This document shows, piece by piece, positions 5,153 through 61,568 of a stretch of DNA of 64,000 bases (position 1 is the stretch's first letter; each line of letters starts with the position of its first letter). Where the stretch lies: contig OX597820.1 in the NCBI GenBank assembly GCA_951406725.2, positions 49,414,001 to 49,478,000 of the forward strand. The letters are read 5' to 3'. The position numbers were made by a program, and so were the translations under genes. The stretch comes from Octopus vulgaris. Taxonomy: Eukaryota. A model generated the notes under the pieces. That model had not been told where the DNA came from and did not search any database. It worked only from the letters and a program-made list of their open reading frames with translations.

Positions 5153-5306
5153 CGCAGCTCAAAGGCACAAGCGTGGCACCTTGGGCAAGTGTCTTCCACT
5201 ATAGCCTCGGGCTGACCAAAGCCTTGTGAGTGGATTTGGCAGACAGAAACTGAAAGAAGGCCGTTGTATGTATGTACGTATGTATGTATGTATGTATGTA
5301 TGTATG

Positions 5307-5348
<42 letters not shown>

Positions 5349-5597
5349 ATCATATATATATATATGTAGATATATGATTGTGTTTCTGTGTTTGTTCCCC
5401 CATCATCGCTTGACAACCGATTTTGGCGTGTTTAAGTCCCCGTAATTTAGCAGTTCGGCCAAAGGGACTGATCGAATAAGTATTAGGCTAACAAAGAATA
5501 AGCACTGGGGGTCGATTTGTTCGACTAAAGGCGGTGCCCCAGCATTACCGCAGTCGAATGACTGAAACAAATAAAAGAATAAAAGAATAAAAAGAAC
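5151..5597 (+). mobile_element. tRNA-derived SINE family A (CORE-like, octopus OR2-like) with internal microsatellite
   Basis: GGCACCTTGGGCAAGTGTCTT...GAAACTGAAAGAAG, internal (TATG)n/(TA)n, and 3' end GCAGTCGAATGACTGAAACAAATAAAAGAATAAAAG. About ten copies or fragments occur in the window. Confidence 0.85.
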
Positions 5598-7676: not shown

Positions 7677-7718
<42 letters not shown>

Positions 7719-7719
<1 letters not shown>

Positions 7720-7892
7720 TTTATTTAAAGCAGCAGAAAATTCAACAAAACCTGTTACTCTGAGTTTCCCGTTGCCGTTCATCGGACAGTTTTGTTGAAT
7801 TTTCTGCTGCTTTAAATAAAGCATATTACTCTACCACTGGTATTTGAGTACCCTTTTTTCCACCTTGTTTCACATTTATGTGTTTACTCCGG
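7719..7892. mobile_element. Non-autonomous Penelope-like pLTR element with inverted arms, inserted in (TA)n
   Basis: Inverted repeat 7719-7755 / 7786-7821. Segment 7786-7892 is homologous to the reverse complement of 40018-40126. Carries a hammerhead motif. Confidence 0.75.
7746..7794 (-). ncRNA. Minimal type I hammerhead ribozyme-like motif
   Basis: Minus strand: AAAACTGT-CCGATGA-ACG GCAA CGG-GAA-ACTCAGAGT-A^ACAGGTTTT, read as stem I, core, stem II with GNRA loop, palindromic stem III and GUA cleavage triplet. Confidence 0.72.
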
Positions 7893-12950: not shown

Positions 12951-12965
12951 GTGTAATAGTATCTT

Positions 12966-13345
12966 CTATTCTTTTACTTGTTTGTCATTTGACTGTGGCC
13001 ATTCTGGAGCATCGTCTTTAGTCGAGAAAATCGACCCCAGGACTTATACTTTGTAAGCCTAGTACTTATTCTATTGGTCTCTTTTGCTGAACCACTAAGA
13101 GTTACAGGAATGTAAACACACCAGCTTCGGTTGTCAAGCGAATTTGGGGGACAAACACAGACACACAAACATACACACACACACACACATATATATATAC
13201 ATATATACGATGGGCTTCTTTCAGTTTTTGTTAACCAAATCCCCTCACAAAGCTTTGGTCGGCCCAAGGCTATAGTAGAAGACACTTGCCCAAGGTGCCA
13301 CGCAGTGGGACTGAACCCGGAAACATGTGGTTCGTAAGCAAGCTA
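12966..13345 (-). mobile_element. SINE family A copy
   Basis: Reverse complement of the family A consensus (TTTTACTTGTTT..GTCATTTGACTG ... GACACTTGCCCAAGGTGCCACGCAGTGGGACTGAACCC). Confidence 0.88.
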
Positions 13346-15302: not shown

Positions 15303-16490
15303 ATATGTTTCTTTATTAGCCACACAGGGCTGCACACAGATAGAACAAATTACAAGGTAGAGCTTTTCTTTTGAAGGTTTAAAAAAAAAAAAAAAAAAAA
15401 AAAGGAAGGGGGAGTTTCGATCAAAAGGGATCGTAAAAGGAGAGAAAGAGGACAAAAAAAGGGGGTTAAAAAAAAAAAGGGGGAGAGGAAAAAAAAATTG
15501 ATCAATAGGGATCGTTATCACAGAAATGTCAATATGAAGTGTAAAGGGGAGGACAGGTGAGGTTTACCCGTGGAAAGAAAAGCCTACGGAAAAGACCACG
15601 GTAACCTCGGTCAATGAAGTCACATTTTATATTTCTTTTTTTTTTTTTTTTTTTTTTTTGCAAATAAGCAACTCTCTGTTTTCGATTTCTGGGTTCATAG
15701 GACTATGCTCAAGGTGGCTTCGTCATTCATACGTGCCATTCTTGCTACATTCACCCATCTTTTTTAAAACATTCGCTAGACAAAACTTGCCTCTCTACTC
15801 TCACTTTCCTTTTCAAGTGGTACTTGAAGAAGTTGATGAGAGATTGACCAGAGAGGAAAGTGTTTGTCTCCAATCCTTTCAGACGCGTCCACCAGATACA
15901 TTCTTTCGCCATAGCCACAAGGATGATGAAAATAGCTCTTCCTTCCCGTTTGAAGGAAGGAGGCGTGACAATATTGACGATAGACTCAGCTGATAAACCG
16001 ACTCGTCCCACACGTGACAGCAGTTGTTCGACATAAGCCCACAGGTCGGAAATTGTTGGGCACTGAACGAGTGCGTGCAGAACGGTTTCGTCGCTCTGAC
16101 CGCATCTCGGGCAGGTCGGCCCCGTGTTTCTCGAGCCGTGTCTGTAGAGCTTATCCCGAACGGGTAGCGCTTCTCGGTAGCACTGCCAGGCCAGGGATCT
16201 CTGGAAGTTGTCCATGGGCCCTGGCCCGAAGGTCGTCCTGAACAGGCGGGTCAGGTACTCCTCGTCGACGTCCAGGTTCGCCCCGAGTTCGTCGTCGTAC
16301 CTCCCCTCCACTAAACCCCTATAGAATGCTTTGGTTGTGTTGAAGTCACTTAAGGTCGACCCAGGACGGCAGAGTTGCTTGAGAGCAACGCGACACTCGC
16401 GGTGCCATTCGCCCTTCCTCGGCCTCTTTTTGATCCACGACTGCAGTTCGGTCATGGAGACGAGCTGCGGGAAAGCGTGCCTCACAAACG
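15303..16490 (-). mobile_element. 5'-truncated Tx1/L1-clade LINE (ORF2 C-terminus with zf-RVT/CCHC motif, plus 3' UTR) inside (GATA)n
   Basis: ORF 15751-16490 reads RSLAWQCYREALPVRDKLYRHG..TCPRCGQSDETVLHALVQCPTISDLW..MAKECIWWTR. It is GC-rich relative to the flanks. AATAAA lies at 15317-15312, immediately before (TCTA)n, and GATA repeats flank both sides. Confidence 0.9.

Positions 16491-16557
<67 letters not shown>
16491..16557. repeat. (GATA)n microsatellite
   Basis: Direct reading of the sequence. Confidence 0.95.
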
Positions 16558-17007
16558 CAAAGAGCTATAATTATTGAGACAAACAAGCGCATAATGAAAA
16601 GGACATAAGTACATTCAAAACAACGCTGTACAAACACAAACGTGCGCATGCTCGCGCTTACGCACAATTTCGTTCCCTATCGTTCATATGCCCTCCTACC
16701 TTTATACATAGTTTTACTGCTAAACTAAAAAATAATCAAAAGAATCAAAAACAAAAAAAATCAACAAATTGTCCCCATTCATAAAATGCATGAAGAAAGG
16801 ACAATCTGCCATCTGCCAACACGTGCACCATCCCTGCAGGGACGTATGCACTTTTATAATATTTTATCTACTCAAACTCTGCCATGTGGCACATGCAGTA
16901 GCAGCAGCGGCAGTAGTTGTAGAGGAGTTAGGATGGCGTTGGTGGTGGCAATTGGGAACCTACTGCATGCCGTAGTAATAACTGTGATGTGGTTCGTGTT
17001 TTTCTTA

Positions 17008-30470: not shown

Positions 30471-31159
30471 CCGTAAAGAAGATATATCAGTAAAGAAGAC
30501 GTACTCGGTAACCTGGATCGAGAGAGAGAACAAAATCGATGATGCGAATGAATTTAACTGTAATTTAAACGTTGCCGGATGCGAATGTAGGTTCGTCATA
30601 AATGCTACGCCAGCATACTCTTTTAATCTTTTACTTGTTTCAGTCATTTGACTGTGGCCATGCTGGAGCACCGCCTTTAGTCGAGCAAATCGACCGCAGG
30701 ACTTATTCTTTGGAAGCCTATTACTTATTCTATCGGTCTCTCTTGCTGAACCGCAAGGTTACGGGGACGTAAACACCCCCAGCATCGGTTGTCAAGCGAT
30801 GTTGGTGGGGACAAACACAGACACACAAACATATGCACACACACACATACATATATACGACGGGCTTCTTTCAGTTTCCGTCTACCAAATCCACTCACAA
30901 GTCTTTGGTCGGCCAGAGGCTATAGTAGAAGACACTTGCCCAAGGTGCCACGCAGTGGGACAGAAGCCGGAACCATGTGGTTGGTAAGCAAGCTACTTAA
31001 CACACAGCCACTCCTACGCCTATACCCGTAAAGTAGAAGACGAACTCGATAACCTGGATCAAGAGAGAGAAGAAAATCGATGATGCGAATGAATTTAACT
31101 GTAATTTAAACGTTGCCGTATGCGAATACAGGTTTGTCATAAATGCTATGCCAGCACAC
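30471..31159. repeat. Direct repeat of about 130-150 bp (30471-30618 and 31026-31159) bracketing a SINE
   Basis: Both copies contain AAAATCGATGATGCGAATGAATTTAACTGTAATTTAAACGTTGCCG..ATGCGAAT..AGGTT.GTCATAAATGCTA.GCCAGCA.AC. Confidence 0.9.
30619..31022 (-). mobile_element. SINE family A copy, full length
   Basis: Complete from head (reverse complement GGCGTAGGAGTGGCTGTGT) to tail (TAAAAGATTAAAAGA). Confidence 0.9.
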
Positions 31160-37910: not shown

Positions 37911-37965
37911 TTCATTTGTTTGCATGTGTGTGTGTGTGTTTATATTCTTTCATTTTTTAATTATT

Positions 37966-38153
37966 TTATTTGTTTCAGTTATTTGACTGCGGCCATGCTG
38001 GATCACTGCCTTTAGTCGAGCAAATCGACTCCAGGATTTATTCTTTATAAGCCTAGTACTTATTCTATCGGTCTGTCTTGCCGAACCGCTAAGTTACGGG
38101 GACGTAAACACACCAGCATCGATTGTCAAGCGATGTTGGGGGGGGGGGATAAT

Positions 38154-38194
<41 letters not shown>

Positions 38195-38354
38195 GGGCTT
38201 CTTTCAGTTTCCGTCTACCAAATCTACTCACAAGGCTTTGGTTGGCCCGAGGCTATAGTAGAAGAAACTTGCCCAAGGTGCCGCGCAGTGGGACTGAAGC
38301 CGGAACCATGTGGCTGGTAAGCAAGCTACTTACCACACAGCCTCTCCTGCGCCT
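37966..38354 (-). mobile_element. SINE family A copy
   Basis: Reverse-complement match to family A along its full length. Confidence 0.88.
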
Positions 38355-39108: not shown

Positions 39109-39981
39109 TAGATATATATATGCATATATATATAAGTATATATATATATATAGATATATATACATACATATATAAATATATATACACACACACACATACA
39201 CATTAATATATATCATCATCATCATCGTCATGATTTAGATCTCATTTTCCAACCTTGCATTGTTGCATTGCTTGGACTCACCATCCATCCATCCACCACC
39301 AGCCATCATCGGAGTGTTCGATGAAGGCATAACTGACCGAAAGTTCGAAGTTAGCGTCCTTCAATTGAATGTAAAACTGATTTTCTTATAACATACAAAA
39401 CAAATATTAATATGGTGCTCCAGTATGGCCGCAGTAAAATGACTGATACAAGTAAAAGAGTAAAAGAGTATACATATGTGTGTGTGTGTGCGTGTGTGTG
39501 TGTGTGAATATATGTTGGGTGGGGCCGGTAAGATGCACATAAATATAACCCCATAAATTTGAATATGAATGAGTGCATACAACATGCATACGGCGTATAA
39601 AACCTTGCACTTGCGAGCTAAAAATTGAACATCACTGCGATCGCTCCGAGTAGAAGAAAGCTTACTCAAATCACACCAAGTGTCATAAATTAGGAATCCT
39701 TATTGTAGTGAATTGTTATATTCTGTGTCTCAAAAGAGTCACGACTCGAATATATTTGATCATAGATTTACGTAATGCTACCTGGTGCTAAACATCAGAA
39801 ACAAACGAAATAGCAACACGCGTAGGAGTGGGTGCGTGGTAAGTAACTTGCGTACCAATTTCAGGGTTTCAGGTTCAGTCGAACTGCGTGGCATCTACTG
39901 CAAGTGTCTTCTGCTATAGCCTCGGGCCGACCAAAGCCTTGTGATGGAATTTGGTAGAGGGAAACTGAAAGAAGTCCGTCG

Positions 39982-40018
<37 letters not shown>

Positions 40019-40117
40019 CGGAGTAAGTACATAAATGTGAAAAAAGGTGGGAAAAAATAGTACTCGAATACGAAAGGTAGAGTAATATGCTTTGTTGAGA
40101 AGCAGCAGAAATATCAC

Positions 40118-40164
40118 AAAAACTGTTACTCAGAGTTTCACGTTCCCGTTCGTCGGATAGTTTT
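40118..40164 (-). ncRNA. Minimal hammerhead ribozyme-like motif
   Basis: Minus strand: AAAACTAT-CCGACGA-ACG GGAA CGT-GAA-ACTCTGAGT-A^ACAGTTTTT. Confidence 0.75.
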
Positions 40165-40175
40165 ACATTCTAAAC

Positions 40176-40222
40176 AAAACTGTCCGACGAACGGGAACGC
40201 GAAAACTCTGAGTAACAGTTTT
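40176..40222 (+). ncRNA. Minimal hammerhead ribozyme-like motif (inverted copy, slightly mutated)
   Basis: AAAACTGT-CCGACGA-ACG GGAA CGC-GAAA-ACTCTGAGT-A^ACAGTTTT. Confidence 0.68.
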
Positions 40223-41110
40223 TGTGAACAGTTTTTGTGATATTTCTGCTGCTTTTCATTAAAGTATATATACACATATATATATTTTTATATATGTGTG
40301 TGTTTGTGTGTGCGTGCGTGTATGTTTCTGTGTCTGTGTTTGTCCCCAACCCTCACAAGACAACCGATGCTGCTGTGTTTACGTTCCCCGTAGCATAGTA
40401 GTTCGGCAAAGGACCGATAGAATAAGTACTAGGCTTACAGAGAATAAGTACTGGGGTCGATTTGCTCGACTAAAAAGGCGGTACTCCAGCATGGCCGCAG
40501 TCAAATGACTGAAACAAATAAACGAATAAAAAAATAAAAGTATAATATATCATAAAAATGTAATATAAATACTATGAAAATTAAAGATTACTAAGTTATT
40601 GAGTGTGATTCGGTGAGCACTTCTTTTAAATATTTTGCTTTTAATCGCAACTGATACATTTGACCTTTGAGGTTTTGCTATTACCATTTCTTATAAACAA
40701 ATTTGGTTGCTATAAACATAGCACGAATCCCTTTATTGTTCTGCTTCATTGAAATGAAAGGTCCAACTGAAAAGTTTTGAAATTTAAAAACTAAATGTCA
40801 AGAGTCGAATTGAGAAAATATGAAAATCAACTTAAGGAACAAGTGTCTGTTCTAGAATCACTACCTAGGTGGTGGAGGTGGTGGTGGTGGTAGAGCTGAT
40901 GGTAAAAGTGATGGTTGTGATGGTGAAGGTAATGGTGCTGGTGATAAAGTGGTGATGGTATTGGCGATGACGGTGTTGTTAAAGTTGTTGGTGGTGGTGG
41001 CGGTACTGGTAGTAGTGCTGGTGGTCACGCGTTAGATACTTCAAGACCCTCTTTGCCATCATATTCGTCATCATCATCATTATCATCATCATATTCAGTA
41101 GCATCTTCTT

Positions 41111-41770: not shown

Positions 41771-42559
41771 GCAGACAGAGATAGATATGGTCATGTCTTT
41801 GTTTCTGTATAAGTGTGTAAGTGGGTGCTGTTACTTCTAATATATATGTTTCTTAGCCAAACCTGTCTTGAATTAACCAATATACGACCAAAAGTCTTCT
41901 AGTCATGAGCATCCAGTCCTAAAGATGTTATCATTAATATCAGCTCGGCTCTGATCAACCAGATCTTTGATCAAATTCCTCATCTCATCATTTATAAAAA
42001 ATATCTGCCTACAGTATATCAGGGCAGCATTCTGCTGACTGCATACATAAACTGTAGGGTTTAGTATATACAATACAATGAATCGAAATACTTTGACTCA
42101 CCGAAATTACTCAGTTAGAAGATTCCTTATATGGGACGTACAAAAGTTAAAGAAAAAGAAATAACAGAAGATTTATACCTTCAATAAAAACCAGTTGATC
42201 GAAATGTTTGTACAATACAATGTAGATTGTCCAAAACCCAGAGGTTCAATTTATCTTATTAAACAAAGTATGGTAAAAAAAAAAAAAAAAAATAAACAAA
42301 TTAGGCAGTTTGGTGATTATTTCTAGAAAACAATTGAATTCCCTGGCTCATAGCTTTATATTAGTGGGATGTGCAATAAATGTGACGAAAGTTATCGTTT
42401 AGACCTTTGTTGGATAAGGAGAGTCTCCCGACATAATCTCAGAGCACACAGATTTCTTTGTTATGAAGTAATGAGGGTCCAGGTAAGTGGTCACTCTAAC
42501 AGCAAGAAATAAGATCGTACTTTCTCTCATATTACACACACCAACTTTAAGAAGTACAC

Positions 42560-42895
42560 AGGCGCAGGATTGGCTGTGTGGTAAGTAACTTGCTTACCAA
42601 CCACATGGTCCCGGGTTCTGTCCTACTGCGTGGCCCCTTGGGCAAGTGTCTTCTACTATAGCCTCGGACCGACCAAAGCCTTGTGTGTGTGCATGTTTTT
42701 GTGTCTGTGTTTGTCCCCTCAACATCGTTTTGACAACCAATGCTGGTTTGTTTACGTCCCAGTAACTTAGTGGTTCGGCAAAAGAGACCGATAGAATAAG
42801 TACTGGGCTTACAAAGAATAAGTCCTGTGGTCGATATGCTCGACTAAAGGCGGTGCTCCAGCATGGCCACATTCAAATGACTGAAACAATAAAAT
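42560..42895 (+). mobile_element. SINE family A copy with internal deletion
   Basis: GGCGCAGGATTGGCTGTGTGGTAAG ... CAAATGACTGAAACAATAAAATG. Confidence 0.88.
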
Positions 42896-43496
42896 GAATG
42901 ATGTTTGATGTCATTTCATCACAAAAATCAGATGGTCACTGTTGGAATGTGTTTCACCATAAGTGTACTCAAACACGCTGACCTACTTTCAACAACCACT
43001 CCAACTACAACAACAGCATCACCATTAGCAGTAGCGGTAGCAGCAAAACTATTTTTATAACTATTTTTTTGTAAATGTTACATTTTAAAATTTTTATAAA
43101 AATATAAAATGAGTGAGATCAATAAAAAAATAATCAATTATCGACAGGTATCTTCGTTGAAAACAACACAGTAACATACACTTCTTTTCGTGATGGGAGT
43201 ATAATTCTATACCATCATAAACATCAAATAAGATTTCAAAATTCAATACTTGATAGTAGGGTAAGATTGACTATAGTTCAGATAAAATAAATCGAATACA
43301 GCAATATAGGGTAACTAGTGAATGGTCTGTATCTTCAAATGAAATAGGTTGTAAGATGACATGTTTGATTTTATTTATTAATGATCATATTTTAAAGTCC
43401 ATATTCATAACAGAATTCTATTATTTGAAATTCAGACTTCAGAAGACGCACTAAAATTAATGCTGTGTTCTTTTTGTCTTTCATTTTTTTTTTCAG

Positions 43497-60945: not shown

Positions 60946-61269
60946 ATAATAATAATGAAGAAAACTATCTTGTGTCATTTGTCAATTTTTCAAATCAAAC
61001 CTGGCCGCATTTATCGTGTAAGAAGAGATGTGATAATCAGCATATACTAGATGTTTGGAGAATAGGATAGCAGAATCGCTAGACAAATTATGTACAGCAA
61101 TGCTTCGATATACGTGTTAATTTGTTCCCGGTGATAGCTCGTAAAGTGAAAACTCGTAAAACAGAGTGATAATTTTCCATAACAGCATAGAAATTTTATG
61201 CCGTCATTTTATTTCGTCGTTGTGTAAACATGAAGCAACCACTGTTGCCACACACGCAAAATGGCTGTT

Positions 61270-61568
61270 TTACTCTTTTACTTGTCGGTCATTTGACTGT
61301 GGCCTTGCTGGAGCACCGCCTTTAGTCGAGAAAATCAACCCCAGGACTTATTCTTTGTAAGCCTAGTACTTATTCTTTTGGTCTCTTTTGACGTACTGCT
61401 AAGTTACGGGGATGTAAATACACCAGCATCAGTTGTCAAGCGATGTTGGGGGGGGACAATTACAGACACACAAACATATACACACACACATATATATATA
61501 TATATACATATCTACGACGGGCTTCTTTTCAGTTTCCGTCTACCAAATCGACTCATAAAGCTTTGGTT
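61270..61568 (-). mobile_element. SINE family A copy, 5'-truncated
   Basis: TTTTACTCTTTTACTTG ... GGGCTTCTTTTCAGTTTCCGTCTACCAAATC. Confidence 0.85.

Follow-up and report, generated by a model that had tools for sequence, protein, structure and literature searches.

The element at 40,017-40,265 of the window (the whole stretch of 64,000 nucleotides of Octopus vulgaris DNA that was analysed) is most probably a single dead-on-arrival insertion, in which two opposed, 5′-truncated copies represent the 3′ end of a Penelope-like element (PLE) of the Hydra clade; its family carries C at position 4 of the hammerhead core (C4). It is inserted in a microsatellite, its arms carry hammerhead motifs in divergent orientation, its family is large, with varied junctions and C4 as the majority state, and it shares its layout and a tail hairpin with Hydra-clade PLEs. 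The inverted shape of the insertion is in itself ordinary and already known; the family-wide core variant and the tail hairpin are apparently new.

Anatomy of the element and its landing site

The two divergent hammerhead motifs are real. As an earlier note on this DNA had claimed, two inverted hammerhead-like arms are present inside (TA)n, and the locus comprises, in order, (TA)n, a long arm with its tail, an inversion, a short arm and (TA)n:

39800..40535, no strand: SINE-like host repeat interrupted by the insertion
39985..40016, no strand: left (TA)n target tract, within the internal microsatellite of the SINE-like host repeat
40017..40089, minus: 3′ tail extension of ~70 nt, long arm only, terminating at (TA)n
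40060..40083, minus: tail hairpin ACTC-stem-loop-GAGT-AC, common to Hydra-clade PLEs
40090..40118, minus: long-arm pLTR 3′ segment, from the ribozyme to the short end
40119..40164, minus: type I hammerhead motif 1 (C3 40156, C4 40155; predicted cut 40127/40126; private stem I mismatch)
40165..40175, plus: inversion-point spacer, likely plus-arm upstream pLTR sequence (loose ends behind 40164 are similar, with an agreement of 0.47-0.6)
40176..40222, plus: type I hammerhead motif 2 (C4 40185; predicted cut 40214/40215; extra A, private stem II mismatch)
40214..40240, plus: 13-nt tandem duplication, bordered on the left by the predicted cleavage site (+/-1); other copies rarely or never have it
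40241..40265, plus: short-arm 3′ segment, halting just ahead of the equivalent of the tail hairpin
40266..40295, no strand: right (TA)n-like tract

In the sense of the ribozyme, both arms have the same sequence, namely the hammerhead, about 40 nt and then an end point, where the plus arm enters (TA)n and the minus arm adds the tail of ~70 nt before (TA)n. The distance from C3 to the short end is 69-73 nt and that from C3 to the tail end 140 nt, and the two C3 residues of the 40-kb element are 28 nt apart. The duplication of 13 nt in the plus arm begins at 40214 or 40215. The long inverted repeat described previously does include both arms, but it spans only ~40085-40269, the stretch 40017-40084 being unpaired.

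MITEs are defined by a uniform internal structure between terminal inverted repeats. The proposal of a PLE-MITE-like unit is not supported here, since the ends are not terminal inverted repeats, the junctions vary and the repeat starts ~68 nt inside the left end.

The internal gap of the host repeat measures 15-115 nt in six other colinear window copies versus ~350 nt at the insertion. Therefore, the element is an insertion into the microsatellite of this repeat; a target-site duplication is unreadable inside (TA)n. The SINE-like repeat, with its internal (TA)/(TG) microsatellite, is abundant (7 copies in 64 kb), the other copies being located near 5171-5588, 12964-13345, 30621-31019, 37952-38352, 42558-42899 and 61268-61567. 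The window also contains a LINE remnant (15754-16614, minus strand), a 287-aa ORF with a zf-RVT domain. Among its named relatives are proteins of Argonauta hians (60% identity over 75% of the query) and of Octopus bimaculoides (97% over 13%), which hint at an octopod host.

A second locus of the family shows the same two outer ends as the 40-kb element, but only a single hammerhead:

7713..7891, minus: second locus of the element family, in (TA)n, with its short end at 7713
7748-7793, minus: third hammerhead unit, core CCGATGA, the only hammerhead of this locus
7786-7891, plus: inverted tail-bearing arm of the second locus, starting at stem I, with its hairpin at 7828-7851

Both window loci (2/2) have a tail on one side only together with an inverted 5′-truncated copy, and both (2/2) are inserted in (TA)n; a further loose end is found at 40021 in the sequencing run X2. 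Over the shared ~40 nt, the arms differ at 2-4 positions within one locus and at 7-8 between loci, so each locus is likely to come from one source lineage. The inversion junction is not the same in both loci. The junction of the second locus, which falls at the cut site, was considered as an independent proof of cleavage and rejected, because stem I complementarity alone yields it.

The hammerhead units and their core

The minus-strand unit (40119-40164) reads AAAACTAT/CCGACGA/ACG-GGAA-CGT/GAA/ACTCTGAGT/A/ACAGTTTT. The window units possess three helices in the correct order and an open stem I, which is the PLE-type type I layout recognised in the earlier note. G12-A13-A14, A15.1-U16.1 and H17 are present, with an extra A after GAA in the plus arm. 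The canonical core C3-U4-G5-A6-N7-G8-A9 fails at one position: the three window units (3/3) have C at position 4, as had been noticed before, and their remaining core positions are canonical. For this reason the motif is called here a hammerhead-like core variant. A descriptor that leaves position 4 open, and that was shaped after the motif had been seen, gives 3 matches in the window versus 0 in 100 dinucleotide shuffles. The palindromic nature of stem III is confirmed, the self-duplex between two sense copies having a predicted energy of -7.9 kcal/mol. With respect to Rfam, no hammerhead model appears among the 37 matches up to E=10, which are mostly models of miRNA precursors (hairpins).

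Two A.C mismatches are present in the 40-kb element, one closing stem II in the plus arm and the other in stem I of the minus arm. Both are private to this copy, and the contigs of the family restore the pairs at 90-95% of depth (94-95% for stem I, 90-94% for stem II). Contigs without the extra A of the plus arm are also listed, yet at low depth, so that this letter is less clearly private. Within the family, stem variation is mostly CpG-type in variant tables that are unphased; across relatives, the stems differ while pairing, counted by script, is largely kept.

The element family in public sequencing runs

Four public runs were aligned to the element at 80% likeness, two of DNA (X1 and X2, from organisms A and B) and two of RNA (X22 and X23, from organism C), about 6% of each RNA run being read. 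The matches comprise 7069 contigs in X1, 4443 in X2, 989 reads in X22 and 936 in X23. The family is clearly large, contig counts being different from copy numbers.

None of the contig pieces listed spans the whole element, and the joints are varied among the 15 listed of 60 in runs X1 and X2. For instance, 40093 is joined to 40141, 40151, 40157 or 40162 on the opposite strand; further joints connect 40093 to 40173, 40175 or 40178, and 40147 or 40151 to 40227. The depth at 40206-40223, where the duplication lies, is ~3.5-4.3k versus a peak of 1.5M in X1.

Seven of the 16 contig pieces listed bridge the inversion with near-equal spacing, 11-23 mismatches and 3-9 gaps. Therefore, the inversion just upstream of the ribozyme recurs and the junction is not fully random, so other loci have a similar one. 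This observation weighs against the preferred reading and is one point for a rival origin, the MITE-like reading of the earlier note in its strongest form, in which the family would be a short non-autonomous PLE derivative, either a ~150-nt ribozyme-to-tail RNA or the folded-back unit being copied in trans by a Hydra RT. In agreement with this, no ORF has been found for the family, the sequence upstream of stem I is heterogeneous (depth falls to ~5% of the peak at 40161-40169 in X1), and pLTRs alone are described as able to support integration in trans (Arkhipova 2013). However, the joints vary widely among those 15, the two window loci differ in junction, and a mini-element of this shape corresponds to the 3′ end of an element with an ORF, as described below. 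Besides, the reference contains only 11 nt upstream of stem I, which makes the drop in depth partly an edge effect, and long copies cannot show in short contigs. Such a derivative is unlikely, and two truncated copies joined in one insertion are preferred.

The same joints bear on the retrozyme reading of the earlier note. As a metazoan non-LTR retrozyme, the element would spread via circular RNA produced by double self-cleavage. Its type I hammerhead, small size and low G+C would fit, and retrozymes have been proposed as PLE derivatives (PMC7229834). However, retrozymes are tandem direct repeats, whereas the window has one lone unit and one divergent pair; none of the 15 joints listed is a go-back joint, the tail ends lead into (TA)n, and any one transcript carries just one sense ribozyme. 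A retrozyme is therefore extremely improbable.

With respect to position 4, C is the majority state in the DNA contigs of the family as well. U4 at 40185 represents 2.8% and 1.3% of DNA contig depth and is found in 7 of 46 RNA reads; U4 at 40155 is not among the variant rows listed (68 further rows exist). The change G5A accounts for 5-6% of contig depth and is seen in 78 of the 301 RNA reads, and CpG sites nearby change at 0.5-3.3%. The U4C change puts a CpG in the catalytic core (40155/40154 and 40185/40186), the methylation-type decay of which leads to the canonical core or to G5A. Since U4 is rare and occurs at the rate of nearby CpG decay, C4 was already in the source elements, and the U4 copies look like CpG decay of C4.

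In the RNA runs X22 and X23, both mate directions are equal in depth and the sole start pile-up is at 40019. The check for RNA 5′ ends at GUA^ACAG suggested in the earlier note gave no read-start pile-up at the cut site in these two runs, which are ordinary RNA-seq libraries, not built to show cleavage ends.

Hydra-clade relatives

From its sequence, the family is likely to belong to the Hydra clade. This tie is drawn from the ribozyme, a near-match to that of Hydra-2_aMil outside stem II, and from the covarying tail hairpin that is shared. The earlier note had suggested looking for a linked PLE ORF. None is present in the window, where neither a tblastn search with a Hydra protein nor a Hydra profile gave any match, and Pfam detected no PLE domain in 38 window ORFs (at least 125 aa) or in 25 locus ORFs (at least 90 aa); such an ORF is present in the relatives L001 and L023.

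The relatives were found with motifs taken from the element family or from L001. A metagenome scan in which stem III and the cut site were fixed and position 4 could be U or C gave 13 loci, all with U4 (13/13; L010 and L011 are near-duplicates). A Hydra profile added 14 loci, which appear to be contigs of the host within bacterial assemblies. In the position-4-open scan, nine of these 14 contain 26 hammerheads between them; every one has U4, and several are positioned 97-188 nt after an ORF. Across related loci, U4 is present in 39 of 39 matches. The motif scan of viral contigs and the C4-only pattern in prokaryote genomes gave no match, and the Hydra protein scan of viral contigs none that was confirmed. 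The 14 contigs from bacterial genomes and MAGs (L014-L027) carry Hydra-type PLE ORFs, accompanied in many of them by hammerheads and (TA)n, and are likely to be animal-host contamination.

The L001 hammerhead is located 110 nt after an endonuclease ORF, and its 17-nt stem III and cut site are as in the window. Full-length relatives of L001 have ~700 aa and bear RWK, DKT, YRDD and CxCX5C, which are Hydra-clade diagnostics according to Craig 2021 (PMC8557442), the clade having one RT-EN ORF that lacks CCHH; the classification of L001 as Neptune-type was dropped for this reason. Hydra-type proteins of ~700 aa are numerous (P0001-P0213; 1991 matches among 8000 scored candidates), and eight that were tested have no significant Pfam match. 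Pfam RT matches were obtained in L003 (with RNase H) and L012, neither of which is matched by tblastn with the Hydra protein.

An ORF-less, (TA)n-flanked divergent hammerhead pair is present at L018:5030-5320, with the canonical core, a one-sided tail and 26 nt from C3 to C3. Its identity to the 3′ end of the L023 element, which does bear an ORF, is 95-97%, so stubs of this kind do occur in an ordinary Hydra family. The notion of a separate non-coding family is not supported, since Hydra PLEs with an ORF are accompanied by similarly shaped mini-elements that match their 3′ ends. In L018 (4900-7594), L023 and L025, several PLE families form dense nests in one another's (TA)n, and as many as 8 hammerheads occur within 7.6 kb.

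Some observations speak against a Hydra origin. Upstream of the ribozyme, the agreement among loose ends is poor (0.47-0.6), and the lone octopus Hydra consensus in Craig 2021 (PMC8557442), Hydra-1_Obim, has a different hammerhead; Hydra-1_Obim was rejected as the parent on this basis.

The tail hairpin

The tail hairpin follows the pattern RCTC-stem-loop-GAGY-RC, 72-106 nt after C3. It is found in the two window tails (2/2) and in 11 of 31 other units, versus a background of 1.5-2.2% per 220 nt; many of the 20 units without it reach (TA)n or the contig end first and some do not. The loci are the two of the window (40060-40083, minus; 7828-7851, plus) and L003, L004, L012, L017, L018 and L020-L023. 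Over 12 motif-bearing sequences, pairing is kept in 91% of cells, a value equalled by 0 of 500 shuffles, the significance of which is overstated because the sequences were motif-selected, some are related and the pattern was written after viewing. The outer pair is G-C in 10 sequences and A-U in both window copies.

The words 'hairpin' and 'stem-loop' are absent from the main text of Craig 2021 (PMC8557442), and the literature search yielded no paper on a tail hairpin in the Hydra clade, so that this structure is apparently undescribed. It is a candidate RT-recognition or RT-binding signal for the Hydra clade and offers a way to classify ORF-less stubs.

The hairpin also weighs on the possibility that the element is the 3′ end of an octopod Naiad, or of another non-Hydra PLE, whose C4 core was missed by published descriptors. 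Octopod Naiads do target (TA)n, one of them is labelled HHR_half_core, and the published core search required cuganga (PMC8557442). However, the tail hairpin and stem III match Hydra loci, the family-specific strings that were tried have no match in the Naiad, Chlamys and Hydra consensus files (line breaks could hide some), and the only shared string matched two Hydra elements. A Naiad or other non-Hydra source is accordingly very unlikely, and the Hydra clade is retained as the probable origin.

Proposed mechanism of insertion

The mechanism that is slightly favoured consists of nicking of both strands, primed reverse transcription at (TA)n, early stops and head-to-head joining. A PLE RT-GIY-YIG protein would nick both strands of the palindromic (TA)n, and each nick would prime reverse transcription of the element RNA, in one case beyond the tail hairpin (long arm) and in the other just before it (short arm). 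Both cDNAs would end early, often near the ribozyme, and would then be joined head to head. The same shape could be reached by self-priming on an antisense template, a route proposed by Arkhipova 2013.

Different published data provide the background for these steps. Craig 2021 (PMC8557442) describes inverted 5′-truncated copies with a tail at one end only, and lists (TA)n as the target in 26 of 27 Hydra families. Dual hammerheads on opposite strands, 100-700 bp apart, are also published. In vitro, both strands of AT-rich DNA are nicked and extended by the PAc protein, which assists its own hammerhead and begins reverse transcription at two sites bounding the tail (PMC11167929); these data, which underlie the model of two start sites, come from a PLE of the Poseidon clade and not from Hydra.

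The fold-back of transcripts from either strand that was previously suggested is supported by prediction (-110 to -123 kcal/mol). The ribozyme is, however, predicted to be buried and not presented: the predicted cost of forming the hammerhead is 50-60 kcal/mol in the whole element versus 8-10 in a lone arm. Because of this folding penalty, the ribozyme in a transcript of the 40-kb copy is likely to be hidden in the long hairpin and silent.

Activity of the C4 ribozyme

Whether the source elements had an active ribozyme is a separate question. There is an even chance that they retained a C4 ribozyme of reduced activity, which would have cleaved through stem III dimers or with the help of a protein. 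Given a PLE origin, it is also plausible, if somewhat short of even, that U4C killed the ribozyme of the founder and that the family spread anyway, by PLE transposition without cleavage. For instance, a natural U4C change in a viroid 'considerably decreases activity in vitro' (Perreault 2011, PMC3088659), ribozyme-dead mutants leave PAc insertion in vitro unaffected (PMC11167929), and Naiads thrive without a canonical hammerhead (PMC8557442). Moreover, CpG decay regenerates U4 in some copies, yet there is no U4 takeover. However, the same viroid variant is still infectious in vivo (PMC3088659), and, in the rows listed, the frequent non-CpG variants of the ribozyme are confined to loop III and the distal part of stem I, the flanks being variable at many sites. 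The start of the private duplication also coincides with the predicted cut site; a jump off a cleaved template would produce this, and so might slippage in this one case.

A more demanding version, in which the C4 hammerhead of a high-copy octopod Hydra-PLE lineage is active in vivo as a dimer or with the help of RT-EN, and cleaved RNAs from the cut site to the tail hairpin act as templates, so that a minimal PLE 'SINE' is copied in trans, is rather improbable. If true, cleaved templates would have left their traces in the 13-nt duplication and in the second-locus inversion, each of which lies at the cut site.

Among PLEs the hammerhead is near-universal, yet in vitro it is dispensable, and Naiads do not have it. 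The wide spread of a family with a core-weakening change, in three related species or more, is thus a natural experiment on the need for self-cleavage, with core CpG decay to G5A or U4 as an internal neutral control. Cleavage by C4 would mean that the accepted core is too strict and that whole families have been missed by CUGANGA-based surveys; a lack of cleavage would mean that a PLE with a dead ribozyme can be successful in vivo.

Comparison with known systems

Variants of the PLE hammerhead have reportedly been treated by Lunse in RNA Biology in 2017. In the papers searched, no report of a C4 PLE family was found, the viroid of Perreault 2011 being nearest. The family-specific strings were not found in the supplements of the papers searched, where line breaks can hide matches.

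The window family resembles Hydra PLEs in its type I hammerhead near the 3′ end, stem I CTGT/ACAG, stem III ACTC-N-GAGT and the A at the cut, Hydra-2_aMil and Hydra-2_aJap having the closest hammerheads among those listed in Craig 2021 (PMC8557442). Hydra PLEs also share the (TA)n target and the inverted truncated copies, and Penelope-13_HM has hammerheads on both strands. The location quoted for Hydra-type hammerheads, ~60-150 nt from the 3′ end, agrees with that of the window family. In contrast, the window family has C4 and not U4, a 3-bp stem II closed by A-U, a stem I of at least 8 bp and a tail of ~70 nt, versus the 30-40 nt quoted for Hydra PLEs.

The PLE hammerheads reported by Cervera and de la Pena 2014 (PMC4209133) share with the window family the palindromic helix III and the dimer model. 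According to that report, minimal PLE hammerheads are mostly single or occur as opposite-strand pairs from truncated PLEs; the core variant it describes is U3-A8, whereas that of the window family is C4. The natural U4C hammerhead (Perreault 2011, PMC3088659) has the same core change, but it belongs to a viroid and not to a high-copy genomic family.

Non-LTR retrozymes (PMC7229834; Li 2026, bioRxiv 10.64898/2026.07.22.740005) are likewise small and non-coding and carry a type I hammerhead. However, they yield circular RNA from tandem direct repeats, while the window element is a divergent pair in (TA)n. PAc (Frangieh 2024, PMC11167929), used here as the model for the mechanism, shares an optional tail, an AT-rich target and a ribozyme in the pLTR, and differs in its Poseidon-clade affiliation, its canonical core and a ribozyme that overlaps the start of the ORF.
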